A DNA stretch of 64,000 nucleotides, taken from NCBI GenBank assembly GCA_032718475.1, contig JAUCBJ010008715.1, positions 16,025 through 80,024 of the forward strand, in the 5' to 3' direction. Under the pieces are notes generated by a model that worked only from the letters and a program-made list of their open reading frames with translations, was not told the origin of the DNA and did no database searches. The number at the start of each line of letters is the position of its first letter. Position 1 is the first letter of the stretch. A program made the translations under genes and the position numbers. This document shows positions 31,646 through 62,269 of the stretch, piece by piece. This DNA comes from Nemertoderma westbladi. Taxonomy: Eukaryota; Animalia; Xenacoelomorpha.

Positions 31646-31770
31646 TGATATTGCATAAAATGCACTGACAATGCAAGTGATTGTATTGATATTGCATAAA
31701 ATGATGATATGTACATTTTTGATAGTTTATAATTATTAGTTTAATGCAAATATTTCGGTTTGATAGAGTG

Positions 31771-36086: not shown

Positions 36087-37405
36087 ATATATATATATAT
36101 ATATTAGACCGTTATACAAATAAAAAATACAAATACCCATCACCACTGGTCTGCCAGCCCCGCACCTCGCAGACCGGCCCCGTCCCCGAAACCCAAGCCT
36201 CGCCACGACCGTCGGCCGCCCCGGAGGCAGAGGGAGCTGGACCGGAGAAGCGCGAACTGCAGCCGCCGTCGAACACCCCCCATGACACACGCGAGGCCCC
36301 TCTCTCGCATTCCATCCCGCCGGGTCACGAGTGTCTCGGCGAGATGGCGGATGAGGATCTGGGCCTCGGCGCTCCAGACACCGTCGGTGGTGCCCACCAG
36401 AGGGGTGAACGACATCCTCCGGTCTTCACAGACGGTCCGGTAATGCATCTTCTTTAACCGGCACCGCTGCTCCAGGAGGGACTCGGTCGAGCGGTTGGTC
36501 TGGGCGTAAGAGGTGGCGTCAGCGTTAATTACCGCAATATCAAACGACGCCACTCTCTGGTTCGCCCAAACCCCCCGTGCGACCAAATCCGCCCGCACTC
36601 CCCCTACCTCCCTACCTTCCCTGTCGAGGTACCCCCGGGACAGGGTCACCTCCCGCTCAACGCTGGGCGCACCGAACGCCGACGCCAGGAGTTCCCCGAA
36701 AACATCGCGAACCTCATCGTGGCGTTTCACGATGAGGCCGCCGGACTTGCAGCTGAGCGCGTGCGAGGTGGAGAACGTCCCCCCACATCCCTCGCACTTG
36801 GACGGGAGTCCTGGTGGGACGAGGCCATACCGGAGGTTCAGGCTGTCCCGGAACTCCTCGGCACTGAGGTCGGTGGCGTCCAGGATGCTTGGCTGGGCCG
36901 TCAACCAGCCGCCGGTTTTGTTTAGGACCGCTCTCGTCGCAGTTCGCCTGCGGTCTGCCGGTAGAGCTCCCAACGCAGCCTCCCGCTTCTCCTTGTAGGC
37001 CTCGTCCTGGGAGATGCGGCTAGCTGCGAGGACGGCTCGCAATTTGGCAGTGTGGTCGGCCACGTGGAGAGGTTGCGTCCTCTGGATCGCCTCGGAAACT
37101 ACCGCGGTGCCTTCCATGGACGCAGAGCGTGCCGGGGTCTGCCGCATTGTAGGGTCCCGCAGTCCGATGCCGCCGTGGCGGGCTGGGAGGAGGGTGAGAT
37201 CCTCGTCGGCCGGTTGCAGACTAGAACACCCGAAGAGGGAGGGGATGAACTTATTTAGCAATGCCGTCCGAATTGGGGTGACATCCTCGGCGTGGGTGGG
37301 TACGACCCGCAGCAGGTAGTCCCATTCCGCCTGCACACAGCGGGACATTCCCGTGTGGGCGGTCTGGGGGTACTCTGTTGCAACCCCCGCGAGTTTCCCG
37401 ATATT
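36087..37405 (-). mobile_element. 5'-truncated CRE-clade non-LTR retrotransposon (zinc knuckle + restriction-like endonuclease), (TA)n tail
   Basis: CEGCGGTFSTSHALSCKSGGLIVKRHDEVRD...RADLVARGVW...ASFDIAV...KKMHY...FTPLVGTTDG; GC-rich; 3' UTR runs into atatatat. Confidence 0.82.
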
Positions 37406-37520
37406 GCCTGTTACGTTCATTAGGCCAATAATTTCAAGATGTGTCAATGTTAGAAAAGTTGTCTCCAAACGTCCGACACCATTTCAACTCCAATCAAACT
37501 ACTAAAACTGTTGAAAAAAC

Positions 37521-40500: not shown

Positions 40501-41945
40501 GTGCCCATGGGGTACTGCCTTTGTTTTGCCCATGGGGTACCTCCCTTGTTGTAGCCATGGGGTACTGCCCTTGTTGTGCCCATGGGGAACTGCCTTTGTT
40601 TTGCCCATGGGGTACTGCCCTTGTTGTGCCCATGGGGTACTGCCATTGTTGTGCCCATGGGGTACTGCCTTTGTTTTGCCCATGGGGTACTGCCCTTGTT
40701 GTGCCCATGGGGTACTGCCATTGTTGTGCCCATGGGGTACTGCCTTTGTTTTGCCCATGGGGTACTGCCCTTGTTGTGCCCATGGGGTACTGCCATTGTT
40801 GTGCCCATGGGGTACTGCCTTTGTTTTGCCCATGGGGTACCTCCCTTGTTGTACCCATGGGGTACTGCCCTTGTTGTGCCCATGGGGAACTGCCTTTGTT
40901 TTGCCCATGGGGTACTGCCATTGTTGTGCCCATGGGGTACTGCCCTTGTTGTGCCCATGGGGTACTGCCATTGTTGTGCCCATGGGGTACTGCCTTTGTT
41001 TTGCCCATGGGGAACCTCCCTTGTTGTAGCCATGGGGTACTGCCCTTGTTGTGCCCATGGGGAACTGCCTTTGTTTTGCCCATGGGGTACTGCCCTTGTT
41101 GTGCCCATGGGGTACTGCCCTTGTTGTGCCCATGGGGTACTGCCCTTGTTGTGCCCATGGGGTACTGCCCTTGCTGTGCCCATGGGGTACTGCAATTGTT
41201 GTGCCCATGGGGAACTGCCTTTGTTTTGCCAATGGGGTACTGCCCTTGTTGTGCCCATGGGGTACTGCCATTGTTGTGCCCATGGGGTACTGCCCTTGTT
41301 GTGCCCATGGGGTACTGCCCTTGTTGTGCCCATGGGGAACTGCCTTTGTTTTGCCCATGGGGTTCCTTCCTTGTTGTACCCATGGGGTACTGCCCTTGTT
41401 GTGCCCATGGGGTACTGCCTTTGTTTTGCCCATGGAGTACCTCCCTTGTTGTAGCCATGGGGTACTGCCCTTGTTGTGCCCATGGGGAACTGCCTTTGTT
41501 TTGCCCATGGGGTACTGCCCTTGTTGTGCCCATGGGGTACTGCCCTTGTTGTGCCCATGGGGTACTGCCATTGTTGTGCCCATGGGGAACTGCCTTTGTT
41601 TTGCCCATGGGGTACTGCCCTTGTTGTGCCCATGGGGTACTGCCCTTGTTGTGCCCATGGGGTACTGCCCTTGTTGTGCCCATGGGGTACTGCCCTTGTT
41701 GAGCCCATGGGGTACTGCCATTGTTGTGCCCATGGGGAACTGCCTTTGTTTTGCCCATGGGGTACTGCCCTTGTTTTGCCCCTGGGTTACTACCCTTGTT
41801 GTGCCCATGGGGTACTGCCTTTGTTTTGCCCATGGGGTACTGCCCTTGTTTTGCCCATGGGGTACTGCCCTTGTTGTGCCCATGGGGTACTGCCTTTGTT
41901 TTGCCCATGGGGTACTGCCCTTGTTGTGCCCATTGGGAATTGTCC
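37521..41945. repeat. 4.4-kb satellite of 25-bp (and 28-bp variant) units
   Basis: ttgttgtgcccatggggtactgccc with palindromic cccatggg core. Confidence 0.97.
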
Positions 41946-42319
41946 TTGATTAATCATCGATATTCTTAAGGGGGACATCGGAGGAGGTTCTAGCTTCTAG
42001 ATTTTCAGACTTTTTTTATATATTTAATTTTTGAGGATTGAAAACGACTAAGTGAGATCTTTTAGTTCAGTCATTGATGTCTGACATTCGACCGCTCTGC
42101 GCTTTTAAATAAATAGGTAACCATTTTCAAAGACCATTTTCTACTTATTACAATAACTGACCAATCATCTCCCAAAGGATAAACTTTTTAAATTTTTGAA
42201 AAAATGATCTTCTTTTGCGGTTTTGACACCTAGATTAATTTTCGGCGCTGTTTCCGAAAATGGCAAAATATATCGAAATTTTTTGGCGTTTGATGGTCTT
42301 TTTTGGTGTCAAATGTGGT

Positions 42320-44141
42320 TATAGAATTATATTCTCTAAATGCCGTGGATTTTCAAAATTTTATTTTATTCGAATTAACTTTGTAAAAGATTGCTTTGAG
42401 TCCTCATTTGTATTTGTTATATCTATTGTACGCCTATTGGTCAAGTGGTTCAGTAGCTCAGTCGGTAGAGCGTTGGAAATTATATGTGTAGTAGGTATTG
42501 AGTTCGAATCCTAGTAAGTGCGAATTATTTTTTGTACAGAATTTCAACTCATTTAAATTGACCGCTACGAATTAATTGCATTTGTCTGTACCAATGAGAC
42601 TGTAGTTATTTGATTGTAACCAATGTCGTGCAAGTTATATATTAGCTGGACCAATAGCTATCTTTAAAAACCTGTTAGAACCTATAGAACAATCGAGAAT
42701 TTTCTCGATTGATTGCAGCACAAATTTGCTATATAAAGGTGCGATTTGTTCATTAGTTATCTCAGTGCAATACCGTTTATTTCAGATTACATTGTACATA
42801 TTATTATAATCTTCTGTAATAAAGTCAGAATTATCGCTAATCTGCCTTTTCTATCTGTTTTACCATGATTCACTACGGTGAACAAACCTAAGGGACAGGA
42901 TGGCCGGCTAGAGATCGGGCCGCAGCAATGAACGGGAACATCGGGGGAATGTAGACAAGAGACAACCCGCAATACCATCTTGAGTTATTCGCCCATCGCC
43001 TGAAAGGTTAGACAGCGTTCGACGCCTTGCTACCTAAGTGTAAGACCAAAAGATCAAAGGTAGAAGTAGTGGCACGCTGTGAGCCTAAAATTACATCTTA
43101 GGGACTGTACTGTCTTGATTCAGGAAAACCCACAGTAGACCTTCATATTCCTACGGGGAGAGGAGAGAGAGAGCAGGCAGATACTAGTACGCAGATAGGA
43201 CGTAGGCACACCGGTACGAAGCATACAAATTGGTAGGGTGCAGCAAACTGTACGCCTAACTCTTGCTAAGTGCAGGTGCGTTTGCGACTATTTGCAGTAC
43301 AACGGTGTCCATTGCATTAGAACTTGTAGGCTAGGAGGGTTGCTGTGTTTTCACCTGAATTGGGATTGTGCCGTTCAGGCGGTAGGGCAGTTTACAGCTA
43401 GGCGCAAATAAATTGAGGCTATTAGGGATACTAACATCTACCGTGTCCCCGCCAACGCCCTAATAGGAAGTTACCCAGCCTACCTAGGTGACTAAAATTC
43501 TAGATAGGACGCCAGGATAGCTATTAGTAACTGTACGCCTACAGTAGTAAACTAACACATCTCTTCTTAGTATCAGGGACCTGGTACCTAAAATTGCCGA
43601 ATTCTGGGCGTAGCATTAACCTTATGCCTGAATTTGAGTCCTGGAAATACGCAAGAGGGGAAGGAACCTTATCATTCGTGAGTATTGGACCTACAAGTTA
43701 CAAAATTAGAATATTCGTAAAATGCACACCGTACCCAGTAATTATATATGTGAAGGAGCAAAACTGTTTTGACCGTTCAGAATTAACACGCGCGTTAGAA
43801 ATTATTTACACCTCAAAATATATAAAATTAACTTTTGTCTGCCTCTGTACCTAGCTAGCGTCCCTTCGCCCAACCATATAAATCACACCACGGCAAAGTA
43901 TACGAGCCCCTTAGTCCGTCAGTGAGTCAGCCTGATTTTAGGATTCGCTGCGCGGGATTTTGTTTTATCGAAGTTTGTCTGCTCGTAGACTGTTTTCTGC
44001 CTCACCGGTTATAAGAGATCGATACTGCAATATATTCGCTTACTTAGAGTTTACTGTTTTGGTGAGAAGGTCGGATTTATGATTTGATTCACAAACTTTA
44101 CAGTAGGATATTGCAGGTATTGTTACCGTCTCTTCCATTTA
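42320..44141 (+). repeat. 5' LTR (1822 bp)
   Basis: Matches 59867-61729 except a 41-bp indel and a few substitutions. Confidence 0.95.
42590..42768 (+). promoter_or_regulatory. LTR Pol II promoter: three CCAAT boxes, TATA box, TCAGT initiator
   Basis: accaat at ~42590, 42619, 42650; ctatataaagg ~42729; tcagt ~42762, about 30 nt after the TATA box. Confidence 0.6.
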
Positions 44142-45000
44142 GTAGGAATATGTTCTACTGAACTACGGTTCGGTAGGACTAAAATTATTTGAAAATTTTG
44201 TATTTTGAGGTAAAAGTTTGTATTTGATTAGCTAAGTGCTAATTTTTTGAAATAAAATTTGATTTGAACCGCGTGTAAAATATTTTGGAATTGAATACCG
44301 GTGTTTAAAAGGGTTTAAATACCATATTGTACCGGTACAAAATTTTCGTAAAGTAAAACCTAACTCTTTTGTTTTTCAGGATTCAGAACTCATTTCTAGA
44401 CTGTAACGGGAGCAAGACCGTGTTTAGCAAGTTTGGGAGATAGATAACCAACAACTTTGGTTGGGAAAATCGCGTTTCGTCCGCAACGCTGGAAACGGAA
44501 AGGTTCACGTTCGGTTTGTATCTGGGAATCTGTTTTTCTGGAGAATTATTGGAGTGGGTGAGTTCGAAAGGTTGCATAAATAAGTTAGGCATTACCGTAT
44601 TAGTTAAAATTATTGTGGGTTCCACTGTCTCAAGTATTTATGCATTCCGTATGATTTCTTTGTTCATTGCTGAATTAGTCCGTATTATTGTATTTAATTT
44701 ACTTTTTGATAACGCATATCGTTATCCGATTTATTTGTTATAAAATTGGCCGCTAGGCTAATTTTATTATATACTTATTCCGTGACATTTATTTGCTGTA
44801 AAATTGGCCGTTTAGGCTAATTTTATCCATCTGCTATAAAATCGGCCGGTAGGCTAATTTTATATGACTGTAATTAGTACCGTTTAGATATAAATACAGT
44901 AAACTCGATACTTTGACACTCACTTTACTTGACTTACAACTACCAAAATGAGTGACAAACAAGACTATACGAAGAATACACAAACCGACTATGACTCATG

Positions 45001-45367
45001 CTGTGACGGGATCATCCGGAGATGAACCCGATTTATCCTGTTTTAGTTCATGCGTCCCCGCCGTGTGAAAGAGTGTAAGTTGAGGTTACTGTTGTTCGTT
45101 ATATTGTGATCTTGAGACGTGATATAGATATAGATATAGATTGATGTTATACACTGACGTTCACAGGTTGACGGGATGACGGTAACTAAAATCCCGTCAA
45201 CCTGTGAACGTCAGTGTATAACATCAATCTATATCTATATCTATATCACGTCTCAAGATCACAATATAACGAACAACAGTAACCTCAACTTACACTCTTT
45301 CACACGGCGGGGACGCGTGAACTAAAACAGGATAAATCGGGTTCATCTCCGGATGATCCCGTCACAG
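45001..45367. repeat. 177-bp near-perfect inverted repeat with 13-nt spacer
   Basis: 45001-45177 is the reverse complement of 45191-45367 (one mismatch seen). Confidence 0.95.
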
Positions 45368-45903
45368 TAACTAAAATCCCGGTACTTCCCTAATTGTAAC
45401 TTACTGTACCACCAGTAACACTGAGATAACTGAGGTAATATGATTACTGCTTACTGGTTATATCGCACGGTGGCCTTATTGCTACTCAATCGGTGCCAGC
45501 CCCCCTCTGATTGGTTGCTACCCTTGTTGGCGCCCTTTGAGGTGTTCCCGTTCACCCCAGCTATTCTCTCCCTTGTCAGGATACTAACCCCTGACCCTTA
45601 TTGTGTGCTTCTCCTTCCCATTCTGTTGGGGAGACACGAGTTGGTTTGGGACCTAATCTCGTGTCCCCCAATGTTGCTTATTGGCTTAACTTTGTGGAGT
45701 ATTGGCGGGATTGATTCGCTAACACATGCGACGGAGATAAGTCAGCAGCGGAAGAACAACAGGGGAAGACTCGCGAGCCTACCGAACCTACACCGTGTGC
45801 GTCACCAGTACATCCAACGGGAGTACCGGATGCCGTAGTACGAGGCGACGGCAGGACCGAGGACTTTCTAACTGTTCCGCAACCTAGATACAGGGAAACG
45901 GAC

Positions 45904-48900
45904 ATGGTAAGTTCAGCAGGAAGCCAGGAGAGTGTGGTTAGAAGCGTCGGCGGATACATGGCGCATATAACCAGGAGTATTGGAGAAGGCCAACGCATAT
46001 TAAACGAGTTGACCACTCCGATGTCTCGATTCGAGTTCTACACCCTCCAGGTTAGAGTACAAAATAGAGTACACAAGTCCGTAGATAACCTAATTGGTCT
46101 ACAAGATCTAGCTAGACAGAGACAGGACATGGATACTCAACTTAGAATCCTCGAGAAACTAATGATCGCTAGAGAGAAACTGATTCAGTTTAAGTCGACG
46201 ATTAGACAGATACAACAGGAACAAGCGGACCAGTTGTTAGGTGAGTCAGTTTCGGACGAATTATTACAACCCGAGGAAGAACAGGAACTGTACCGACTGG
46301 ATGGACAATTGAAACACCTGACGGACCACTTACGCATGTGCGGCGAAGACGTCGGCGATTTGGAAACCGTGCCGGAATATACGAGGGAAACTTCATTCGC
46401 ACAAATCGAATCGGCACCGTGAATACTAAATCAATCGCTGGTAAGTATTCGTAGCGAAATCTGCGAGGGAAGTATGGTCACGTCAGAAGTTGCTCGACAA
46501 CAGCAAGAATTCTACCAACAACAACGAGAGATCGAGGAACAAGCTCAACTTCTAGTGATGCAGGCAGCAGTAGAGGAAGAGAAGCTACGCGTTGCAAATG
46601 TAGCGAGAATCTCTCATCTACAGGAACAAGCTGAATTAGAAGCAGCTGAAGTAGAAAGGTTAGAGGTAGACATCGCCCAACAAACGGCAGCGGTTGATTT
46701 AGCGCAACGAAACGCAGCGGTCGAGTTAGAGCGACAGATGGCAGCGGCTGATTTGGAGCGACGAAACGCAGCGGCTGATTTAGAGCGACGAAATGCAGCG
46801 GCTGATTTAGAGCGACGAAACGCAGCAGCTGATTTAGAGCGACGAAACGCAGCGGCGGAATTAGAGTGAGAAAGATTAGTTTCGGAAGCACGGGCCGAAA
46901 TGAAAACACGGCAAATAAAAGCTCAATCCGCTATACGACAAGCGGAGTTTGAGGCGCAACGACAACAAACGGAACAACGAGAGAAGACAGCTAAACTTCA
47001 TTTCGAACTCGAGAAGAAGGCGAGAGAAGTAGCCGAAGCCAAGGAAAATCTGGATCTTCTAGCCCGCGATAGATCAATGAGATCTCGTGACGGACATGAT
47101 TTGGACCAGTTAGAGGTAAGACATCGCCTAATTCAGGAACGGAAGAAGGAAGGAAGCGTAGGAGCACCCGGACGGGAACGACAATTAGTAAAAGACTTGT
47201 GTCAACGATTCCCACAAGTAACTCCTATGTTTGCACCAATTATGACAAAGAAACCTGTTTCGATTGCGGGTAGTAGTGATATTTCTCCTATCCATGGTGC
47301 GACGGAACACAGGTTTGTTATTCCGGACAAGTTTACACCGCCAAGAGCAACGTCGTCGCCTATTCCAAAAGTCAAGGTAAGTAACCCGCCGATTACGGAT
47401 CGTAGTAGTTTGTTGACTGGACCTGCACTACTGACGACTAAACAGGTGAGTCCACCGTCGACACCTAAACCCGTTACACACTACGCTTACCCAATGACGT
47501 TTCGACCTACAAGGCCGGTAGATTCAAATGCTGTCATTCGCCCACCGGTTCAGTTTACATCGCAATCTACGACTTCGAGGAAGACTTGTGAGCCTACCGA
47601 ACAACGGAGAACAGTGGATACGCGACCGTTCAATCAGTTTACATCGCAATCTACGACTTCGAGGAAGACTTGTGAGCCTACCGAACAACGGAGAACAGTG
47701 AATACGCGACCGTTCAATCAGTTTACATCGCAATCTACAACTTCGAGGAAGACTTGTGAGCCTACCGAACAACGGAGAACAGTGGATACGCGACCGTTCA
47801 ATCAGTTTACATCGCAATCTACGACTTCGAGGAAGACTTGTGAGCCTACCGAACAACGGAGATCAGTGGACGATGTTCCAAAGCGAAACGTTAGAATTCG
47901 TACGACACAACGGACGCGAGCACGTCGACCACCATATCCAGATGATAGTAGTACTTCAAGCGAATCGGATTACCCGAAACGCGAGGTATTTAGAACAGGG
48001 GCGGCCGATGAATATAAACGCGAGCGTTCAGACAACTCCTTTGTAGACAATCCTCCACAGAATACACCAACACCGAAGGCGTTACAACCAACGGACGCAA
48101 TCAGTACACAACAGTTCGCCGACATCCTGCGACCAGTTGTTAACAAGTTGGCTCAGATCGAGGAGCGTCTGGAGGAAGTTCAAACCGATAGTTCGAGGAA
48201 CACTGAATTCGAACACAATAGACACCCGAAGGAACCACAAGGACCGGTACCTTCAAAACACCCATCGTATCAGGGAAAAGCGCCAAGAAGGGATATCAAC
48301 CAGTGTACCAACCAAGGACGCGAAACTCTGAACGTTGCCGAGGAGATAGCGAAATTCGCAGCCAGACAGGGATTGCCGGTACAACAACCACCGAAGTTTT
48401 CCGGTAGTTCAAAACACTGGCACACATTCGTAGACTATATCGAATCTCAGATCGCCGTGTGCGCCTGTACATCACGGGAGAAGTTTAATTACCTGCTTCA
48501 AACGTTGTCAGGAGAACCTAAACGTTTGGCGGAGACCTTCGTTGGTGTACCGGACGCTTTCGAACTAGCGTACGATCGTTTAACTTCGATATATGGAGGT
48601 ACAGTCAGCATGGCCAGGTCAGTAATAGAGGAACTCTGTAAGGGAGGGGCTATCACTAAACCCGTCGACTTATTAAAACTGGCCGACGAGATAAAGAATG
48701 CTATCACTACTTTAAGATCCATTGGACAACTTGACTACGGGAATACCCCTACAGTCCTATTAAAGATCATAGGACGACTCCACCATCGACTTCGTCGGGA
48801 GTGGAGAAAGATCGAATACCAGCGAGAAGAGCGGGGTGGATTCTTAAAACTGGAGGATGTGTACCTTTTAATATCCAGGGAGGCAGTAGTAGAAACTCGA

Positions 48901-51900
48901 TCTAACTACACTGACCAGCACATCGTAGCAGAAGGGATCACCTTGCCATCCTCCAACCGACAAAAACCTCAGACAACATCCACCAAGACGGCCACTTACG
49001 CCACACCGACGGAATCACGACAATTCTCGGACGGTAGTAGGGTATCTGCGCCCATTGGGACAAAACAGACGAGACAACAACTCAGTACCGACTTCAGCGG
49101 CTGCCAATACTGCGAGCATTTAGGCAAGCGGTATATCGGTCACAAGTTGCGAGGTTGTCGACAGTTTCGCGAGTTAAACTCGGAAGAACGACGGCTGCAG
49201 ATACGGCCATTGGACTCTTGTTGGCGGTGTACGCGACATGGACACGTCCGTAAAGATTGCCCAAATACCGACACTTGTCCATCCTGTGGACGCAACCACG
49301 ACGGTCTGCTCCACACAGACAGCCACACACCGACAAAACGCTTCGCCAGGGAACACCCGGAAGCAGCAGCGAGATGTGATGCGGCCTACAGAAAACGAGA
49401 ATCGAAAACGACTCCGACCTTCATGACCCATATTGAGGATTGCTTCTCAGAACAACCCGGATCGTCGGACGAAGAGTCAGAAGACGACGACGTATATTCG
49501 GATGGAGATGAACAGCCATCGATCGCGCTTCTGACTACTGACCAACTAAAGGGATTTAGTGTAATTCCGATTAAGATTACTGGCACAAAGGGGAGTAAGA
49601 GAATCTACGCTATTCTAGATTCAGCCTCATCTCACAGTTACGTGGATGAAAAGATAGCTGATGTAGTGACGGATCTCAGACAAGGTAAGCGCGTCAGTTA
49701 TACCGTAAGTAGTATGCACGGACAACGTGCAATACCAGTGACACGAGTTAAGTTAAACTTAGACTCTCTTCTTCCAAAATCGCAACACAGCGAGAGGGAG
49801 AGGTCTTTGTTACCCTTCAAGGATTTGACCTTTGCGGCCACCAAAGACTTTAGTAACCTACTAGGTCCGGTCCCAGAACAATCCTTGGAGGACCGTAAGT
49901 ATTTCAGACACCTTGGTGTACCCGAATGTCCTGTCAATTATAGATCGGTAGCCATGCTGATCGGGACAGACCAATTCAACCTACATCAGGTGTGGGAAAC
50001 CAGACCATCGGCAGTCATAGCGGGAAACGCATACGCCTGCAGAACGCCGATAGGGTGGTATACTCGAGCGCCTGTGCGCACACTAGACGTAAGTGACGAG
50101 GAAGACGATGTACAAAGTACATGTAGTTTATTAACTACAAATTCAATTCATTCCTTCTCACACGACGTGAACCATACTACACTACAGTCGACAAAACATG
50201 ACAGACGTGTGACTAGTATGATAAGTCACAAGGAGCAGCTAACCCACCAGGTGAGTTTAGAACTTGGGGAGAAGACGAGTCAGCTAGAGATTCCATCGAC
50301 GACAGATGATAACGCCGGAAGGCTTGCGAGTCTACCTACCCCAATAACCTCAGCAATACCCGTCGATATCGATAATGACGCGTTGAGAAATCATCAATTG
50401 GAACAAGCTGTATTGGACAAAGAATTAACGGAGAAGACTATCAGGTGGTTAGAACAAGATACAGCTGAACCTGGTAGCTACGAACCTTGTATGTCGGAAC
50501 AGGAGAAACAATCTTTGAGGATCATGGAAGATACTATCCGCCAGACGGAGGACGGACATTATGAGGTAGGGATGTTATGGCGTAGCCAAAGTCCTAAACT
50601 TATAAATAACTACCCACTAGCTTTAAGACGTCTACACTCAATACGGCAACGTCTATTAAAGGACGAGAAAGCCCATCTGCAGTACAACACTCAGATGGAG
50701 ACGTATTTGACTAAGGGATACGCTATCCGAATGACTAACCCAGAGATAGTGACTAACCAGACATACTACCTGCCACATCACTACGTGAGACACCCCGACA
50801 AACCAGATAAAGTACGCGTAGTCAATGACTGTGCGGCTCTGTTTGAGGGAATGTCCCTCAATAGCGAGTTGATGGATGGACCAAACATGAATAATTATCT
50901 TATGGGGGTGATTATGCGCTTCCGTCAGCGTCAAGTAGCTTTTACTTGTGACGTTGAAGCGATGTTTCACCAAGTGAGAGCGTTAGAGCGAGACAGAGAC
51001 AGTTTGCGGTTCCTCTGGTACCCGGAAGGAGACTTAAGTCTACCACCGGCGACTTACCAAATGCAAGTTCGCGTTTTCGGTGCCAGGGACAGCCCAAACT
51101 GCACGATGTACGCCCTAAAACAAGCCGCTAGGGATCAGAAACACCTGTATGACCCAGAGATAATTAGGATTGTGGAACGTGACTTCTACGTCGACGACGG
51201 ATTACAGAGTTGCAACACAGTAGAACGTGCTACAACAGTAGCACATCAATTACGGGACTGCTTAGCGGGCGGAGGTTTTAACCTCACCAAATTCGCCTCA
51301 AACAGTGCCGAATTAGTAGACTCATTCGGAACGACTGAGCGTGGAGGTGGTGACATAGACCTAGAGTTCGAACCACTACCAACGACCAAGGTGTTGGGGC
51401 TCTTTTGGGACCCAAACACAGACAACTTTCGAGTGAAAGTGAGACTGGACAGTCAAGAAAACACACTGACAAAGAGATCATGCTTGTCAAAATTGAGCCG
51501 ATTGTTCGATCCATTAGGATTCATCAGTCCAATTATACTGCAAGCCCGCATTTATATGCGCAGTATTTGGAAGGATGGACTGACATGGGACGAGCCGATC
51601 TCATCAGACCAAGTGGACTTATGGAAGACCTGGGAGGCGGAATTATCTTCGCTAGAGGATTATTCCATACCCAGAGTCTACTTTCCATTACAAACAACAT
51701 TTCCTGACAACTTGGAATTACACTGTTTTTCTGACGCCAGTGACAACGGTTTTGGTGTGGCAGCGTACTTGCGCAGACAAGTAGACTCAGCAGAATTCGA
51801 TGTTTCGCTCATTACTTCTAAGGCAAAAACAATGCCTACTAAGTATATGACGACACCACGAGCTGAGCTACAAGCCGCAACCCTGTCAACCACCATCGTG

Positions 51901-54638
51901 AACCTTATACAGACAGAACTACAGTCAAGTTTACAGATATTTTATTGGACTGACGCGACGTTGGTTTTATTTTACATAAACAACGACACACTTGAATTCA
52001 AGACATTCGTAGCTAACCGTCGTGCAGAAATTCTAGACTGTTCAATAAAAGAGGATTGGCGACATTGTCCCGGACCACAAAACCCAGCTGATATTGCGTC
52101 GTGAGGAATGATGCCTGAGGAATTCTGTAAACCGGAAAACAAAGAATTTTGGCAACACGGACCCCAATTCTTGCAGAAATCGATGCAAGATTGGCCACCG
52201 TTATACGACAACAAGTCTAACACCATCCCTAAGGACGCCGAAATCAAGAAACCAAAAAAGGGGAAGGCAAAGAAAAAGACGACGGCGACAAAACTCAAGA
52301 AAAAACCGAAGGCGAAATGGAAAGCGATAACTTCAAAGGTCAAGAGAGGAAGACTTGCGAGCCTTTCTACACCAGACATATCGCCAGACGGTCAAACAGA
52401 CACGTTACTAGACAGCCAACCAGACATTTTGCCAGACATATCACAAAATGTTCTACCAGACACTAGTAACATACTGACAAATAGTAAAGCCGCAGTTTCT
52501 CTATTGGAGCGGCCTTCTATTGACAAACAACCAGATACGTTACCAGACGTATTGCCAGACACGTTGCTAGACGGTCAACCAGACGTTTTGCCAGACACGT
52601 CACTAGATATTTCGCCAGATGTTCCGCGAAACATTTTACCAGACATGTCACAAAATGTTCTACCAGACATTAGTAATGTATTGACAAATAGTGAAGCCGC
52701 AGTTTCCCTATTGGAGCGGCCTTGTATTGACAAACTACCAATTTTGACACACTTGAGCAACCATAAGCATGGTGAAACCTCATGTATTACAGATGTGGGT
52801 AGTACCTACGCTAATGTAAATACAGGTGTTACTCTGCGCTCAAGAGACATACCAAACTTGCAACCTATGGTGAAACCTGGGATTAATATCGGCAGAAAAA
52901 TAAGTTTACCGAAACCCACTGACCCCATAGAGTTCAAACCACCATTAACGATCAACTTACAAAGTACCGACAATCAAGGTAAGAAGACAAAGAAGGACAA
53001 ATTACTTGTAGACCGGACGGATCAATAGTCAACAAGGGAATACCTACCGGCGGACCCGTGGGCCCTTCTAGTAATTCAAAACCTTCCAAAATCTCCATTG
53101 ACTTACCTGATGACGTCACAAATACTTACGTCGACCGTATTGTAAACCTAACAGACTCTTGGACAAACGTTTGCCGAAAATTAGCGTGGATTGTACGTTT
53201 TGTACAATACGTTAAAGGCAAACGTGACTTTACACGTCGACTTACATTGGCTGAGATTGACAGGTGTGAAATTAAATTAATTCGCCATTACCAACTGCGA
53301 TATTTCGCGCGCGAATTCACATCTATAAATCAAGGTCAACCAATCAAGTCGTCACCAATACTGAGTTGGAGTCCGATTATTTATAATGGCTTAATTTGTC
53401 ATAAATCTCGGCTTCAAAACATTGACTTTAACACAAACTTTAGATACCCAATAATAATACCACAACATCACGAACTACAACGTGCAATGATACTGGACGC
53501 ACATTTACATCTGAAACACGCTGGAAGACACCACTGTCTTTCCTACTTACGTACAAGATTTGTATTAATTAGACCCAGTAAAGCGTTAAGTTCAGTGACA
53601 CGTACGTGTATTATTTGTAAAAAGGTACATTCTAGAATAGGTACCCAAGAAATGAGTGAACTTCCACAAGCACGACTTCAAGCATTCAGACCACCTTTTA
53701 CAGAGACTGGAATTGATTGCTTTGGTCCCATACATACGAAACGTGGACGTATACTAGTAAAACGCTGGGGACTGATTTTCACATGTATGTCCAGTAGGGC
53801 AGTTCATATTGAACGTGTGATGGATCTTTCCACCAACGCGTTTATACTAGCATTGCGGCGATTTATCGCTAGACGCGGACTAGTAAAATGCTTGTACTCA
53901 GACCAAGGGACAAACTTTGTTGGTGCTCGAAATGAGATTGCTAGAGCCTTTAAGAAATTAGATAATGATCAAATCTCGAACGAACTACAACCTCACAAGA
54001 TTGTTTGGAAGTTTAATCCTCCAGATAGTCCATGGAGAGGTGGAGTCTGGGAGAGATTGATTAGATCTATCAAAACAGCCATGGCAAAGGTCATTCCAGT
54101 AAACCACATATTGACAGACGACCAACTGACAACACTGTTTGTTGAAATCGAGGCAATACTAAATACTAGACCAATAGTATTAGTACCCGATGACAAACAA
54201 TCTCAGTTCGCTTTGACACCGGCACACCTGCTAATGCAGGCACCGACAACTTTGACGCCTATTTCTATTCCAATAGAAAGCGATAGCTACGGTAGAAAAG
54301 CGTGGAAAATCACGCAACTACTGGCTAACAAATTCTGGGAAATATGGCAAAACCATTATTTGCCCTCTATTTCTGCCAGAACAACTTGGTATAATAACAC
54401 CCGCGCATTAAAGCCGGGAGATCACGTGCTGTTAGCGGAAGTGAATCTAAAAAGACGCTTCTGGATAACAGGTGTAATTTTAGCCACACATCCATCTATG
54501 GATGGAGTGACAAGAACTGTAACGGTACGGACAATTGACGGTCGTACAGTAGACAGACCGACTCAACGTCTCGTACTTCTTGAAGAGACTCGTAACGAGT
54601 CTGGAGACTACAAATCTCCACCTAATACTAGTAAATAA
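45904..54638 (+). pseudogene. BEL gag-pol polyprotein, interrupted by in-frame TGA stops (46420, 46867, 52102) and a frameshift near 53030
   Basis: Coiled coil; gag PKFSG..W..F; three Cys/His knuckles; protease ILDSAS; RT YLPHH..KVRVVND, CDVEAMFHQV, FGARDSP, FYVDD; RNase H FSDAS, PRAELQAA, WTDAT, NPADIAS*G; integrase H..H..CIIC, GIDCFGP, SDQGTNF, PWRGGVWERLI. Confidence 0.93.
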
Positions 54639-55300
54639 TTAGGAGTTTACAAATAGATTTCCACGTACCTGTACACCGTAGTAAGGACAGCGGTAGAATT
54701 CCATTGTCTTTATATGTGAACATTGAGGGTAGTACCCTTATGTGTCACATAGGAGCGGGATTTGTAGGTATAAGAAATGGAATTCTACTTGGAACTCACA
54801 ATATTGAGACATTTTCGAAATTTTAGACAATCCATTTGGATTTGAAAATTTTTTAAAATTTTCTCCAGTGAATAGATTTCAGGGTACAGTCGGGTGGAAC
54901 TTAAAATTAGAGAAACAAGAGAGGAAGACTTGCGAGCCTTTCTTAAAATTTTAATTAAATTTTACACGGTCTTGTTTCAATAAGTTACGTCAATAAATAG
55001 ACTCCCCTATATTTATTACTAATTCTTGATTGCTTATTTTCTGATAATAGTTTGGGATCAAAAAGTGAGTATTTTAGACTCACAGCCAGTTTAGCCCAAA
55101 ATTCGTTTTTATTTCGGCAAAAAATTTTAGATAAGAAGCAGCGTGTCATTAAAGAAACCCTAGATCTTAGGCTATGGGTAGGAGGTTAGAGCGTTGTCGA
55201 GCCCAAAGGGCAGACGAAACTCTCACGTCTCCTCACAACTAACTACAAACTCTGTTGTATTCCCTCTAGTAGTAATGATTATGTAACTACACCCCTAATT

Positions 55301-57091
55301 ATGGAGAAAGGGATACAAGGAGAGCCGAGATGGGGATATGATATCCAAGAGGAGGCAGCAGCGCCATTCGAAAGATTTGGAGCCAAGGACTATACTATAT
55401 TCGGTATAAAAGAATTATCGGAAAGTACAGCGAAACTCGCGAGAACTAAATATGACTCGAACGTATTAAAGAGAAGGCAAAACGCATTAAACGAAAGAAT
55501 CGAAAGTTTGCGCCAAACCTTCAACGAACTTTACCCGTACGACGCTTTGTGTGATACGGGAGACATTAGCGAAGACCCCGATACTGAAATTAGTCGTTTG
55601 TATCATACCATGCAATACCTGAAGGCGCACGAACCTATGCCCGCGGTACGCGATGAATTCGATGGAATGCATCTTTACAGACGAACTCGAGGGGACGATA
55701 GAGAAACCAAGGAAGCATTTTCAGTTTATAAACTTTATTATCAATGCGGTTCTTGTATGCGCGAACAACGAAATGCGATTCCGATGCGTTTGAATAAGGA
55801 AAATCCCGAACCGATATTGGCGAGGTGTTCGAACCATCAACAACTACGCTACCAGGAAGGAGGGTATCCTTTATCGAATCCATATCATTCGTTTGCTATG
55901 ACCGGACCAAAGGCGGGAGAAACTGTCATTTACCCACCTAAGGTTGTTGAACCCGATGTATTTGAACTTACGCTGGACGAGGCGAATCAGTCAACCCGCG
56001 AAAAGAAAGAAGCTCTTAGCCTATACAGAGCCTACAAGGCTTTCGAGAAAGGTGAAATGGAAGAATGGGGCGGAAGACTCGCGAGCCTACCTTGCCATTG
56101 GACGTCACACGATCAAACTCCAGCTAAGGAGATGACACCGGAAGTTTTCGAGAGCATAAACTTTGCTCAAAACGTTATTCAGAGACTACAGATTGCATCC
56201 CCGGAGAGGACAAGAGAAATGCAACCGTATAGTACTTCAACTACGAAACCATTGAGTACGACACTCAATTTCCCTATTAGTATACCAGTCCGACAGGATA
56301 CGACGTACGAAATACCCATCGTGGATCATCCAGAAATCATTTCGAACTTGGAGTTTCTTCCTGCAGTTGTTTTTAGCGATATGAGTAAGATATATGATTT
56401 ACGTAGACATATTACTCAAAAGGTCGTGTACAACGTTCCACCTCATATTCAAGATTTCAAGGAACTGGATAGAGCTGGTGCCGATATAGCTCCGAGTAAT
56501 TTGAAAGGATATTTAACCAAGACGATTCGTTTATGGATTGGAACCGGAACCTTCGAGTCGGATACAGATATTGCCGCAGATTGGCGAGGTAAGGTTATTC
56601 GTTTCGAAGATGATAAGGATATAGAGAAGATTTGGCAACCTTCGGAAGAATTGTTGGATGAATGGAATAGGACGTTTAGGTCGTTTCAGGAAAATGGTTA
56701 CATATTTTACGACAACGAGGGCAGCAGTCATCAGCAGAGTTTGACTTCTAAGACTATACAAATTAGAGCGGCGGACGGAGTCCTGCACGTTTTCAGTAGA
56801 CAGAGGAGCGACAAACGAATGCCGATACCTCCAGCGAATACAAAGCGACACCATCTTATCACCGATATAGTAAAGAAGATAGACCAAGCTTGTAATATCG
56901 ACGCTAGAATGCTACCGAAGATGGTAAGAAACATGATTTTAGATAAAACTGTTGTAAAGATTGGATCAGGAGTAAGGGAGGATTTAATTAGCGACTTCGC
57001 CGGCATGACGGACAGCGATGACCGACTACCGACACCTTACGTCGACACTCGACCTCTTATTTTGTGGTCTATAGAACAGGTATATTTTTAG
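55301..57091 (+). CDS. BEL accessory ORF3, part 1; C-terminal part resembles a DEDDy (WRN/RNase D-like) 3'-5' exonuclease
   Basis: YIFYDNEG (ExoI-like), TIQIR, LPKMVRNMILDKTVVKIGSGVREDL (ExoII-like), YVDT; lies between pol and the 3' LTR. Confidence 0.6.
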   Translation: MEKGIQGEPRWGYDIQEEAAAPFERFGAKDYTIFGIKELSESTAKLARTKYDSNVLKRRQNALNERIESLRQTFNELYPYDALCDTGDISEDPDTEISRLYHTMQYLKAHEPMPAVRDEFDGMHLYRRTRGDDRETKEAFSVYKLYYQCGSCMREQRNAIPMRLNKENPEPILARCSNHQQLRYQEGGYPLSNPYHSFAMTGPKAGETVIYPPKVVEPDVFELTLDEANQSTREKKEALSLYRAYKAFEKGEMEEWGGRLASLPCHWTSHDQTPAKEMTPEVFESINFAQNVIQRLQIASPERTREMQPYSTSTTKPLSTTLNFPISIPVRQDTTYEIPIVDHPEIISNLEFLPAVVFSDMSKIYDLRRHITQKVVYNVPPHIQDFKELDRAGADIAPSNLKGYLTKTIRLWIGTGTFESDTDIAADWRGKVIRFEDDKDIEKIWQPSEELLDEWNRTFRSFQENGYIFYDNEGSSHQQSLTSKTIQIRAADGVLHVFSRQRSDKRMPIPPANTKRHHLITDIVKKIDQACNIDARMLPKMVRNMILDKTVVKIGSGVREDLISDFAGMTDSDDRLPTPYVDTRPLILWSIEQVYF

Positions 57092-57212
57092 TGAGTACAA
57101 TACTCAGAAGACTGGAACTGGATACATTTCCTACCTGTTATTCAATTGGGATTATAAGGAAAATAAGAGAAACAAGTATATTGAAACTTATGGAGAAGGT
57201 GATACTCCAGAT

Positions 57213-59027
57213 ATGAGTGAGTTTGAATCACAGCTTAAATGGAGAGGATGCGTGTATTGGGCTATTACGTCACCTCCAAGAGCGGTCTTACAATATTATT
57301 TAGCAATAGAGTCGTCAGTGAATGTTTGCCTAATCGCCGACATTGTGTCTCGGACTCTCAAAAGACATCCACTTTGTCTCGGAGAAGATCATACGTTCTA
57401 CATGGAAGGGAGAATTCGTACCGACGTGTTTAGACGATTCCTTGAACCCTTCTACAACTCCGACGCTCAGTGTAATGCCTTTACTCGAGCAGGATTTAGT
57501 ATATTTCGAGACGTGTATCTTCGCTGTGCGGGATCTCTTATCGAAAGACCATCTATGTTTACATTGTTACCCTATGAAGGAGAACGTATCGTGGAGATTA
57601 CGGAAGAATCACGGCAGACGCGCGCGCCTATCGGTCACCTCGGTGATGATTTCGAAGTAACTACTACGATCGCTGACGATCCTTTAGAGGAACTTCTTGA
57701 GATAGAAAGGAACCTCCCGAAGAAATCTCAGACGGAGATTCGACAACTTGAAGCAACAGATGCTATAGTTTGTATACAACCTTCAGAAACCTACCAACCC
57801 ATAGACCCAGATGATTACGATTATAGTGTGGGAGGAAGCGCTCGACCGATTGGAGATCTTATATACGAACGAGTGTGGTACCCTGCCAATACGATGTGTA
57901 GTAAATGTGGCGTCGCTGGACATCATATGACAAAGTGCAGTGGAAAGCACATTACTACGACTCAGCTAATCTGTGGATGGTGTGGGGATCAAGGGTCTCA
58001 TACCTTTTATACTTGCTGGAGATTTATGGCTCAATGTACTTATTGCAATATAAAAGGACATCGAGCATCTGAATGCCAACTAAGAGACATACCTTATGAA
58101 CACGAATCTGTAAAACTCGTGAGGAAGTTATTTGATGAGTGGGAAGATTTAGCCGACGAACATGTATCGGCACAAAGAAGACGGTTTCCGATGAGAGCGC
58201 ATCTCGGATTTTGGGCGGTAAATCCCCAGACGATGATGTCGGAAGGATATATCTCCGCTATGCCCCAATATGACGAACTTATCGAGGTAGTCGATATTTT
58301 GCCCCACGACAGCGGATTTCGAGTAGTGCGCGAGTATCTACTACAGATTCACCCAGATAATAAAAACACGTGGAATTTTCAGAAAGTCGTTAATCGCATT
58401 ACGTATGGTGAATTCGATCGTTTCCGAATTGAAAAACGGAATAAAGGAGCTTGGTTAACCGTCGCATGGGCGTACCGAGCCGCGTTTTACCATAAACGTA
58501 TACGAGCGAGCGTATTCGAGGAAGAGGAGGTCCTAGAGGCGACGAATATACCAGCCACCCCGGTTGCGCCGTCTGCACGTCACCCTCGCGAGGACGGACA
58601 GGGTAGGATCATACGGGTCCAGAAAGTGGGCCAAAAATTAAAGAAAATTATTAATATAGAAGAACGCAAGGGAGTTGAGCCGACCATTCGAATTACTCGG
58701 GATACGGTATCGCTTCCTAGAGAACCAATAGGAGGATCGGGACATACACCAGCTGATCAACAGGGGGCGCAAGCTACTCTTGGGTCTGCATCGTCCGCTT
58801 CTCGCGCGTTCCCAGACGTTCTACCAACTGTAGTGACAACTGATCGGTCACGAGGAATCGGTCGAGGTTTTGGGATGCTAAATAGACGAATTTGCGAGGA
58901 AATGGTCGCACCGTCTCTCAATGTCCAAACGAAACCAGTGACTCGCCCCACGAGTCCCATATCGCGAGCAAAGTCACCTGTGCGCAGTTTTCGAGGACGC
59001 GGCAGGGCTCGATCCACTAAGCGATAA
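57213..59027 (+). CDS. BEL accessory ORF3, part 2 (probably a frameshifted continuation); three CCHC zinc knuckles, basic tail
   Basis: Frame is open upstream to ~57075, overlapping the end of part 1; CSKCGVAGHHMTKC, CGWCGDQGSHTFYTC, CTYCNIKGHRASEC. Confidence 0.65.
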   Translation: MSEFESQLKWRGCVYWAITSPPRAVLQYYLAIESSVNVCLIADIVSRTLKRHPLCLGEDHTFYMEGRIRTDVFRRFLEPFYNSDAQCNAFTRAGFSIFRDVYLRCAGSLIERPSMFTLLPYEGERIVEITEESRQTRAPIGHLGDDFEVTTTIADDPLEELLEIERNLPKKSQTEIRQLEATDAIVCIQPSETYQPIDPDDYDYSVGGSARPIGDLIYERVWYPANTMCSKCGVAGHHMTKCSGKHITTTQLICGWCGDQGSHTFYTCWRFMAQCTYCNIKGHRASECQLRDIPYEHESVKLVRKLFDEWEDLADEHVSAQRRRFPMRAHLGFWAVNPQTMMSEGYISAMPQYDELIEVVDILPHDSGFRVVREYLLQIHPDNKNTWNFQKVVNRITYGEFDRFRIEKRNKGAWLTVAWAYRAAFYHKRIRASVFEEEEVLEATNIPATPVAPSARHPREDGQGRIIRVQKVGQKLKKIINIEERKGVEPTIRITRDTVSLPREPIGGSGHTPADQQGAQATLGSASSASRAFPDVLPTVVTTDRSRGIGRGFGMLNRRICEEMVAPSLNVQTKPVTRPTSPISRAKSPVRSFRGRGRARSTKR

Positions 59028-59866
59028 AAGGGAGGGCAAGGGTGGACGGAAGACTCGTGAGCCTTTCTTGTGAATTTGTGATTTATTTGAATTTATATTT
59101 ATATTTGTGTTTATTCCGAACTTATGCAATTTGTATTGTTCCGAATTTATGAAATTTAGAAATAAGAACTCATATTTAGTAAGATTTATAGTCAGTAAGA
59201 ATTTATATTTGCAAGATTTATATTTTGTAAGAATTTATATTTTATATTTGTGATTATTCCGAACTTATGCAATTTATATTGTTCCGAATATTATGCAATT
59301 TATATCTTATAAGCAGTATTTGTATTTACAGTGAAATAGAAAGTAAGAGTAGATGGAAGACTCGTGGGCCTTTCTTATAGTTTCATTTGTAAAGTGTTAT
59401 ATTTTGTATTTAGAACGTTTTATAGTTAGAAAGTTTTGTGCTTAGAAAGACTCATATTTGTAATTATTCCGAACTTATGCAATCTACATTTAGGTATGAA
59501 AGTATTTGTAATTACTTGAATTTATGCAATATTTGAGATGCAATAGTAGATGGAAGACTCGCGAGCCTTTCTTATTGTTTTCATTTATTTGTATTTGTAA
59601 TTGTTTGAATTTATGCAATATTGAGATGCAATAGATTTATATTGGTGAATTTAATTTAGATTTATATTGTACTTACTTAGTAAAGCCCTAAATACGTAAA
59701 GTTTGAATTTGTAATTATTTTGTATCGAATCATTACGTAGAAAGGAAGTATTGTTTGAAATTTAATTGTAAATATGTAAGTACGCCCAAAGTATTCTATA
59801 GTTTGATTGATTATTGGTGAAAACCGTATATTTTATGCACGATAATATCCTGTTTTCATGGAGCGG

Positions 59867-61729
59867 TATAGAATTATATTCTCTAAATGCCGTGGATTTT
59901 CAAAATTTTATTTTATTCGAATTAACTTTGTAAAAGATTGCTTTGAGTCCTCATTTGTATTTGTTATATCTATTGTACGCCTATTGGTCAAGTGGTTCAG
60001 TAGCTCAGTCGGTAGAGCGTTGGAAATTATATGTGTAGTAGGTATTGAGTTCGAATCCTAGTAAGTGCGAATTATTTTTTGTACAGAATTTCAACTCATT
60101 TAAATTGACCGCTACGAATTAATTGCATTTGTCTGTACCAATGAGACTGTAGTTATTTGATTGTAACCAATGTCGTGCAAGTTATATATTAGCTGGACCA
60201 ATAGCTATCTTTAAAAACCTGTTAGAACCTATAGAACAATCGAGAATTTTCTCGATTGATTGCAGCACAAATTTGCTATATAAAGGTGCGATTTGTTCAT
60301 TAGTTATCTCAGTGCAATACCGTTTATTTCAGATTACATTGTACATATTATTATAATCTTCTGTAATAAAGTCAGAATTATCGCTAATCTGCCTTTTCTA
60401 TCTGTTTTACCATGATTCACTACGGTGAACAAACCTAAGGGACAGGATGGCCGGCTAGAGATCGGGCCGCAGCAATGAACGGGAACATCGGGGGAATGTA
60501 GACAAGAGACAACCCGCAATACCATCTTGAGTTATTCGCCCATCGCCTGAAAGGTTAGACAGCGTTCGACGCCTTGCTACCTAAGTGTAAGACCAAAAGA
60601 TCAAAGGTAGAAGTAGTGGCACGCTGTGAGCCTAAAATTACATCTTAGGGACTGTACTGTCTTGATTCAGGAAAACCCACAGTAGACCTTCATATTCCTA
60701 CGGGGAGAGGAGAGAGAGAGCAGGCAGATACTAGTACGCAGATAGGACGTAGGCACACCGGTACGAAGCATACAAATTGGTAGGGTGCAGCAAACTGTAC
60801 GCCTAACTCTTGCTAAGTGCAGGTGCGTTTGCGACTATTTGCAGTACAACGGTGTCCATTGCATTAGAACTTGTAGGCTGGGAGGGTTGCTGTGTTTTCA
60901 CCTGAATTGGGATTGTGCCGTTCAGGCGGTAGGGCAGTTTACAGCTAGGCGCAAATAAATTGAGGCTATTAGGGATACTAACATCTACCGTGTCCCCGCC
61001 AACGCCCTAATAGGAAGTTACCCAGCCTACCTAGGTGACTAAAATTCTAGATAGGACGCCAGGATAGCTATTAGTAACTGTACGCCTACAGTAGTAAACT
61101 AACACATCTCTTCTTAGTATCAGGGACCTGGTACCTAAAATTGCCGAATTCTGGGCGTAGCATTAACCTTATGCCTGAATTTGAGTCCTGGAAATACGCA
61201 AGAGGGGAAGGAACCTTATCATTCGTGAGTATTGGACCTACAAGTTACAAAATTAGAATATTCGTAAAATGCACACCGTACCCAGTAATTATATATGTGA
61301 AGGAGCAAAACTGTTTTGACCGTTCAGAATTAACACGCGCGTTAGAAATTATTTACACCTCAAAATATATAAAATTAACTTTTGTCCTTACTGTGTTTTG
61401 CCCGCTAGTTAGACATCTCCGAATCTCTGCCTCTGTACCTAGCTAGCGTCCCTTCGCCCAACCATATAAATCACACCGCGGCAAAGTATACGAGCCCCTT
61501 AGTCCGTCAGTGAGTCAGCCTGATTTTAGGATTCGCTGCGCGGGATTTTGTTTTATCGAAGTTTGTCTGCTCGTAGACTGTTTTCTGCCTCACCGGTTAT
61601 AAGAGATCGATACTGCAATATATTCGCTTACTTAGAGTTTACTGTTTTGGTGAGAAGGTCGGATTTATGATTTGATTCACAAACTTTACAGTAGGATATT
61701 GCAGGTATTGTTACCGTCTCTTCCATTTA
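59867..61729 (+). repeat. 3' LTR (1863 bp)
   Basis: Direct repeat of the 5' LTR; preceded by short purine-rich ggagcgg. Confidence 0.95.
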
Positions 61730-62269
61730 GTGGTGCTTCACCAAAATTACAAATTTTGTGTGATAATTACAAACGTTGCCATAACTCGAGAAAGTTGCCA
61801 CTTATCGGAAAACTGATATCAGATTCGGATTCATCATAAAAGTTTACATCGGAAAACACATAAAAAATAATGTGATGAAAAAGACTGGGGGTGAACCCCC
61901 CCCCCCCCCCCCCCTTAAGTTGATTAATTTAATCGCATTAACTATAAATTATCAACAGAAGGAAGTTACTACTGAATAGTGTTGCAACGGGATCGGGATC
62001 CGCAATTTTCGGGATTCTGGGATCTCTTTTTAATTTTATTCAGGCCATACTCATCCAAAACTTAAAATAGCTATCTACCCTGCCCTCTTTATAGGAGTAG
62101 AACAAAATGCCTATATAAAAATAGCCGCTGACTTTCTACTTTTTTCAAATAGTTCACAGACGTAGTTTATTTCCCACGTACGTATTTATTATAATTTCTA
62201 CACCATTTTTAAAATATCTACAGCAGTCTGACTGAATCGCTGCCACATCTCTATAATATTATAATCGGC

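Follow-up and report, generated by a model that had tools for sequence, protein, structure and literature searches.

The 64,000-nucleotide stretch of Nemertoderma westbladi DNA analyzed here (contig JAUCBJ010008715.1, positions 16,025 to 80,024 of the forward strand; referred to as the window) contains a complete BEL/Pao long terminal repeat (LTR) retrotransposon of 19,410 nt (42320-61729). Between its pol gene and its 3' LTR the element carries a large accessory open reading frame (ORF), ORF3, whose central domain is likely, as judged from its sequence, to be a 3'-5' exonuclease of the DEDDy class. The element is organized as follows.

42315-42319, + strand: left copy of the 5-bp target-site duplication, same letters as 61730-61734
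42320-44141, + strand: 5' LTR of 1,822 nt with TA..TA ends, delimited by comparison with the 3' LTR
45715-54638, + strand: gag-pol, with DUF1759, a knuckle, protease, reverse transcriptase (RT), RNase H/Peptidase_A17, integrase and DUF5641
55250-55272, + strand: candidate splice acceptor from a pattern scan, 29 nt 5' of the ORF3 ATG
55301-57091, + strand: ORF3 first frame, with an N-terminal region, a candidate zinc site CX2C..CX2H (55745), ExoI (D at 56711, E at 56717) and ExoII (D at 56981)
57075-59027, + strand: ORF3 second frame, with a candidate ExoIII (Y at 57297, E at 57309), three CCHC knuckles (57897-58076), a further domain and a basic low-complexity tail
59867-61729, + strand: 3' LTR, with a short purine-rich stretch just 5' of it
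61730-61734, + strand: right copy of the target-site duplication, same letters as the left copy

The Pfam matches to DUF1759, Peptidase_A17, the integrase zinc finger and DUF5641 assign the element to BEL/Pao, a group whose RNase H is Peptidase_A17 (PMC3985635). The pol order (protease-RT-RNase H-integrase) and the paired LTRs flanked by a target-site duplication are those of this superfamily as well. Between the two LTRs there are only two substitutions and an indel of 41 nt, and this near identity, the TA..TA ends and the flanking 5-bp duplication indicate a young insertion. BEL/Pao elements typically end in TG..CA and have a primer site of the TGG tRNA type, whereas the present element has TA..TA ends and a primer-binding site (PBS) that begins GTAGG. 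The closest integrases among 5.8 billion proteins were 33-42% identical, the named ones coming mostly from aquatic invertebrates and fish, and in an integrase tree of 34 rows (FastTree, midpoint root) the element stood on a long branch without a close relative. These relatives, together with the genes flanking the element, point to an animal host. Viral contigs searched with RT-RNase H and with an integrase alignment yielded nothing, and plasmid tblastn, PHROGs and PDB sequence searches gave no meaningful match.

ORF3 consists of two sense frames, 55190-57091 (first ATG at 55301) and 57075-59027, that overlap at a T-run with an offset of one base, jointly comprise about 1,240 codons, and lie 663 nt past the integrase stop and 840 nt ahead of the 3' LTR, i.e. 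in the env slot. An original prediction made from the letters alone had described two such joinable frames with ExoI/ExoII-like motifs, a possible ExoIII and three CCHC knuckles, and these were located at FYDNEG (56705-56722), GVREDL (56969-56986), WAITSPP (57258-57278) and QYYLAIE (57291-57311), with knuckles starting at 57897, 57972 and 58035; in the ExoIII candidate the fourth acidic residue is Glu instead of Asp. The first and third knuckles read CX2CX4HX4C and the middle one CX2CX5HX4C, and the Pfam zf-CCHC model matched them at E=0.0075 only, under its cut-off. The maximal 19-residue hydropathy was 1.07 and 1.38 in the two frames, and thus there is no evident transmembrane helix or signal peptide, as had also been claimed. 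A candidate zinc site was the sole feature noted in the N-terminal 430 residues, and an ESM Atlas query with residues 5-480 of the second frame reached a best score of 0.77 and gave no lead. The env genes that BEL/Pao retrotransposons carry, for example the F-like gene of Roo and the Chuviridae-like gB of mosquito elements (PMC13524379), share with ORF3 the slot between pol and the 3' LTR, but ORF3 lacks the signal peptide, the transmembrane anchor and the fusogen homology of an env glycoprotein. The excerpt of that paper makes no mention of an exonuclease ORF3.

To place the window copy within its family, contigs were compared from five public sequencing runs (four studies) that contain the stretch, of which X1, X2 and X4 were used, X1 being possibly the source sample. 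Thousands of contigs with 80-100% identity mapped onto the stretch in X1 and X2 (a depth that is not a copy number), indicating that the element is a multi-copy family with old subfamilies. The ORF3 break was absent from the contigs that span it in X2 (two contigs, with about half the depth) and in X4 (both contigs), X1 contigs showed no length difference at the site, and the stop codon of the first frame had another letter in all the covering contigs (four in X1, two in X2 and two in X4). A programmed frameshift was therefore ruled out, and the family gene would be a single ORF of about 1,240 codons that is broken once in the window copy. The gag-pol of this copy is also defective: it has a frame break and three in-frame stops. 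At the frame break and at the first stop the family contigs differ from it, and given the difference at that stop, the only one of the three covered by the contig rows compared, stop-codon reassignment was ruled out as well.

In the region encoding the exonuclease-like domain (56660-57340), 40 differences were listed, a further 19 standing outside the list, and 38 were counted after leaving out two at the break. Among these, 25 were synonymous and 13 non-synonymous, against an expected synonymous share of 21-29% (p<3e-6; omega about 0.14-0.21), and of the listed differences that segregate in the family 16 of 23 were synonymous. The two listed changes in catalytic codons were both synonymous. 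This substitution pattern indicates that the central domain is under purifying selection and that ORF3 is functional for the family. Individual DNA contigs from X1, X2 and X4 connect the two sides of the entire exonuclease part (a weak signal, with sides of 24-50 nt), which suggests derivatives that would need the exonuclease, if at all, in trans.

The exonuclease assignment is supported by this selection and by three independent lines of weak to moderate strength. First, the top three ESM Atlas clusters were all PF01612 (DNA_pol_A_exo1), with scores of 0.93, 0.92 and 0.92; the first shared 176 of 256 features, and 26 of 30 matches fell in the PF01612 set, PF01612 being annotated on 17-40% of the members of the top clusters. 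That first cluster is mostly from Rotifera, yet it comes without sequences or context by which kinship with the clade borne by rotifer transposable elements could be judged. Second, the NCBIfam DnaQ model PRK06309 matched over ExoI (E=0.0025). Third, a profile of RNase D built from 10 bacterial genes gave, across ExoII and the P..DT motif, a score of 6.4 bits that none of 1,000 shuffles attained (maximum 4.2). Profile alignments put ExoI, an 'IQI' strand, ExoII and ExoIII in register with the RNase D and polymerase A (PolA) profiles, and ORF3 has, with weak alignment scores, the D-x-E of ExoI on strand 1 and the ExoII Asp. Its acidic pattern is D471, E473 and D561 followed by Y-x3-E, that is, D-E-D-E instead of D-E-D-D, the Y-x3-E standing in place of Y-x3-D at 57297-57311, a placement of low confidence.

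Several observations weigh against this assignment. The scores from hhalign fell short of significance (equalled or surpassed by 5 and by 26 of 100 shuffles), and the other three home-made profiles (38 short exonucleases of alphaproteobacterial type, a two-member mis-translated group and 10 PolA domains) gave no score. PF01612 did not reach its Pfam gathering cut-off in either frame or with an X read-through, a PDB sequence search with the read-through domain gave no match, and neither did two word-based homolog searches with the exonuclease half. HMMER over 1.84 billion representative proteins found no homolog, its single match, a bacterial cadherin-repeat protein (P0002), being discarded as a chance match, and a JGI scan with the exonuclease half returned 127 pattern matches with none confirmed. 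By its own statement, the ESM Atlas, which is uncalibrated for parts of proteins, gives a score of 0.9 to 4-10 of every 100 shuffled proteins. The Glu at ExoIII may also mean that the enzyme is dead. AlphaFold2 run without an alignment gave models with a predicted local distance difference test score (pLDDT) of 31.9 and 35.5, and a Foldseek search with the latter, which is uninformative either way, found no match at E<=0.001. With the evidence on both sides taken together, a DnaQ/RNase H-like exonuclease fold in ORF3 appears highly probable, and nuclease activity, given that fold, would be fairly probable. Of the earlier claim of a DEDDy-like exonuclease, then, the class stood on the Atlas, DnaQ, RNase D and selection results, while no fold or homolog was detected and ExoIII departs by its Glu. 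The cellular exonucleases of PF01612 (RNase D/Rrp6, WRN/EXD2, Mut-7 and EXD1) share with ORF3 the order and context of ExoI, ExoII, P..DT and ExoIII; ORF3 differs from them in falling below every Pfam threshold, in insertions after strand 3, in the ExoIII Glu, in having no detected HRDC and in its fusion to knuckles.

ORF3s of the DEDDy class have been described in the LTR elements Juno1/2 and Vesta2/5 of bdelloid rotifers and are common to their Athena/Terminon elements (Rodriguez, Kenefick, Arkhipova 2017, PMC5408684), which are Penelope-like and are without PBS-type priming; the sharing with Terminons is also reported in PMC6431247, PMC5718144 and PMC6338049. The original prediction had named rotifer and nematode precedents, and only the rotifer ones were recovered from the literature searched. 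Like ORF3, those of Juno and Vesta are non-env frames located after pol, without a transmembrane segment and of the RNase D-like DEDDy class. The rotifer elements, however, have TG..CA LTRs of 159-551 bp, a DEED motif and belong to the Juno/Vesta lineages, whereas the window element, compared with them by motif and layout, is a BEL/Pao member with 1.8-kb TA..TA LTRs whose ORF3 has the pattern D-E-D-E, is about 1,240 codons long and includes three CCHC knuckles. No paper was found on an exonuclease ORF3 in BEL/Pao or in nematodes in a search that left subscription journals mostly uncovered, and none was found that reports an exonuclease ORF3 and self-priming in one element.

The PBS of the element is complementary to its own LTR, as had been predicted together with the TA..TA ends. 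The features concerned are these.

42730-42737, + strand: best TATA-like site of the LTR, with a putative promoter function, 414 nt 5' of the self-primer
43133-43168, + strand: LTR arm of the priming duplex, with 7 bp, a 4-nt bulge, the 11-nt candidate self-primer and pairing with the U5 end
43144-43154, + strand: candidate self-primer 11-mer, with its 3' LTR copy at 60691-60701
44142-44152, + strand: PBS adjoining the LTR end, without TGG, complement of 43144-43154
44152-44179, + strand: 12-bp hairpin with a UNCG-type loop just 3' of the PBS (-16.2 kcal/mol; local fold z about -3.5), which excludes the 7-bp arm of the duplex

Only 0.0005 exact 11-mer complements would be expected by chance, and the LTR:PBS duplex has a predicted energy of -32.2 kcal/mol compared with -24.0 +/- 1.8 in shuffles, none of the 60 being as strong. 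Beyond the 11-mer, pairing continues for 7 bp in one direction and reaches the U5 end in the other, and the 3' end of the 11-mer coincides exactly with the LTR boundary. Tf1, Tf2 and Tj1 (Tf1/sushi group of Ty3/gypsy) likewise have an 11-nt PBS complement in their own LTR, extra adjoining pairing and no tRNA site (PMC7175516, PMC4600332), and in Tf1 the primer is made by an RNase H cut after base 11 (PMC7175516). The present element has the same combination of an 11-nt LTR complement, a PBS adjoining the LTR and no tRNA site, but it belongs to another superfamily, its pairing reaches 7 bp further 5' and its RNA 5' end may lie far upstream; Tf1, for its part, has no exonuclease ORF3. The 11-nt complement, the strength of the duplex and the Tf1-like geometry make it likely that the element self-primes with its own RNA. 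Apart from one plant survey that holds both terms, self-priming in BEL/Pao was not found in the literature searched.

The LTR also holds a tRNA-like stretch (42447-42533, + strand) in which a pattern scan placed an RNA polymerase III A box at 42454 and a B box at 42502, 48 nt apart, with a T-run at the end and a 3' LTR copy at 60001. Neither ARAGORN nor Rfam called it, and it does not fold as a tRNA. Its 5' part pairs with the 5' arm of the hairpin behind the PBS (12 bp, -20 kcal/mol), and a role of the stretch as an RNA switch that controls the priming duplex is conceivable.

The association of ORF3 with self-priming was examined in metagenomic BEL/Pao loci, 79 of 541 confirmed ones being kept and 18 of these having at least 1,500 nt after the integrase, so that this co-occurrence test, suggested by the original prediction, was underpowered. 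None of the 79 loci had an ORF3 match (best E 0.034, outside the post-integrase slot), and of seven downstream ORFs scanned, four were gag or pol of neighbours and three were without matches. Fifteen loci with repeats were inspected, and the seven with definable LTRs remained after eight were dropped in which an LTR was either truncated where the contig ends or of insufficient length; in each of them the integrase match lay less than 400 nt from the 3' LTR, and none had ORF3. Three of the seven had TGG primer sites, one (L104) showed significant self-pairing, another (L142) was borderline (2 of 40 shuffles as strong) and two were unclear. L104 has an 11-nt LTR complement in a similar bulged layout (none of 40 shuffles as strong), a TA 3' end and a gap of only about 180 nt from the integrase to the 3' LTR, without ORF3. 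The stretches L104:566-930 and L142:595-1150 are alike in lacking a tRNA site, in a candidate pairing to their own LTR and in the lack of ORF3. L104 is distant (34% integrase identity) and its own LTRs are 74% alike, and therefore it shows that self-priming without ORF3 is possible, not that the window family can dispense with ORF3, a reservation that weighs against a job of ORF3 apart from priming. The check thus yielded no ORF3 bearer and one self-pairing relative without it. Because the BEL/Pao relatives included none that both bears ORF3 and has a readable PBS, the trimming link is not refuted. On these sequences the link between ORF3 and priming is weakly supported, and the meeting of the two in one element can be a coincidence.

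Among the roles considered for ORF3, the most likely, held tentatively, is that of an RNA-binding accessory 3'-5' exonuclease acting against small-RNA silencing, while the primer is cut by RNase H. ORF3 would be expressed from a spliced subgenomic RNA (candidate donors were placed by pattern scan in the leader at 44210 and 44558), its three zinc knuckles would capture RNA, and the DEDDy-class domain would trim or degrade RNA 3' ends, blunting silencing by host small RNAs as its presumed target. The primer 3'-OH would come from a Tf1-like RNase H cut after 43154, the element encoding an RNase H domain. The self-pairing of L104 without ORF3, the RNase H cut of Tf1 and the DEDDy ORFs of Terminons make it likely that the primer is made without ORF3, and the occurrence of DEDDy ORFs in the LTR-less Terminons argues for a job independent of an LTR primer site. 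Both a role in silencing and one in 3'-end processing have been proposed for the rotifer DEDDy ORFs, with the piRNA-pathway (PIWI-interacting RNA) DEDD proteins Mut-7, EXD1 and Maelstrom named as cellular analogues (PMC5408684).

A related but unlikely alternative is that ORF3 is a weak or dead DEDD derivative which, together with its knuckles, serves as an adaptor or decoy by binding RNA or silencing proteins, like EXD1 or Maelstrom. The ExoIII Glu at a position where DEDDy enzymes have Asp, the extreme sequence divergence and the existence of inactive DEDD proteins in piRNA biogenesis (PMC5408684) would fit such a protein, but all four positions are acidic, the Tyr is kept and the listed differences include no non-synonymous change in the catalytic codons.

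Somewhat less likely again is that the exonuclease makes or polishes the self-primer, by trimming the 3' end of the genomic RNA or the overhang of an imprecise cut and halting at the 11-bp helix to leave a paired 3'-OH at the LTR end. The 11-mer ends at the LTR end, next to a small internal loop at which an exonuclease specific for single strands would stall, and RNase D-type enzymes are known to trim the 3' ends of structured RNA (PMC5408684). The best TATA site lies so far upstream that the 11-mer, unlike that of Tf1, may not sit at the 5' end of the RNA, and none of the three relatives with a TGG-type PBS has ORF3. A Tf1-like cut and the trimming model alike would require an RNA reaching beyond the 3' LTR's copy of the primer. 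AATAAA sites stand in the LTR at 42818, which has the more T-rich stretch downstream, and at 43407, 253 nt 3' of the 11-mer; the position of the latter would suit the model, but at least 250 nt plus poly(A) would then have to be removed in a long trim, and if 42818 were used the RNA would be without a 3' primer copy altogether. ORF3 is moreover absent from all seven relatives with definable LTRs, including the self-pairing candidates L104 (0 of 40 shuffles) and L142 (2 of 40). The claim that the enzyme shortens the RNA from its 3' end as far as the duplex is thus not supported, given the length to be removed, L104, the RNase H of Tf1 and the LTR-less Terminons, and counter-silencing is slightly preferred over it as the mechanism. 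ORF3 as a self-supplied primer-maturation enzyme of a tRNA-independent BEL/Pao element, whose knuckles hold the LTR:PBS duplex while the DEDDy domain trims to the 11-bp helix and sets the TA LTR end, remains correspondingly doubtful. If true, it would be a third way to begin LTR reverse transcription and the first assigned job of a retrotransposon-borne DEDDy nuclease.

It is improbable that the enzyme acts on DNA, trimming untemplated or mismatched 3' nucleotides of the complementary DNA or proofreading RT so that integrase can use the TA ends. WRN and the polymerase-A exonucleases of PF01612 do act on DNA (PMC5408684), and the PBS adjoins the LTR without a spacer at ends that are TA, not CA. 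However, L104 has a TA 3' end without ORF3, and the RNase D profile scored whereas the PolA profile did not. Zinc knuckles, in addition, usually indicate RNA. About as improbable is an accidental motif likeness in a selected protein of another fold, to which the lack of a homolog, Pfam match or usable model would point; the order and spacing of the four motifs are as they should be, however, and three methods separately lead to the DnaQ superfamily.

Other features of the element and the window were recorded. On the + strand there are 13 copies (0.04 expected) of a 17-nt motif whose hexamer core is self-complementary, in the internal region of the element only, at 45764, 47579-47847 (four tandem copies), 50317, 52348, 54923, 56072, 57613 (weak), 59048, 59355 and 59552, both in coding parts, where it is read as GRLASL, and in non-coding ones; with the weak copy set aside, its core varies by C-to-T or A-to-G, which keep G:U pairing, and never by G-to-A, and it is a candidate RNA dimerization or packaging signal or a site for a DNA factor. 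In the window copy the leader 5' of gag (45001-45367) is a 367-nt near-perfect palindrome (97%) that would give a long double-stranded RNA hairpin, for which Rfam gave hairpin-like microRNA matches below cut-off only and no ribozyme. Tandem repeats in gag-pol lie at 47550-47870 (84-nt units), 46687-46873 (coiled-coil repeats) and 52397-52740 (in the long RNase H-integrase insertion). Just left of the element (37400-42000) is a satellite of 25-nt period with more than 130 copies, and inverted satellite arms (28765-29312 and 34995-35795) surround a block (29582-34673) in which two transposase-like ORF pieces and, on the opposite strand, a second ORF were seen by eye. By eye as well, the uninterrupted ORF at 19958-20686 is presumably a host-like EF-hand gene, calcyphosin-like, and 9794-10321 we take to be a host-like exon of a DEAD-box helicase.

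Within the literature searched, the published exonuclease ORF3s are those of rotifer elements only. What was known is thus the DEDDy ORF3 itself, and what is new is its BEL/Pao host, how large it is, its set of three knuckles, the sign of selection and a PBS complementary to the element's own LTR. With this element, DEDDy ORF3s, here much larger and equipped with knuckles, extend to a second superfamily of LTR elements, and it shows purifying selection on the domain, where the rotifer paper could link no advantage to the rotifer DEDDy ORFs. Finally, the LTR:PBS duplex provides, in the same element, a sharply defined candidate substrate by which a role in priming and a role in counter-silencing could be told apart.

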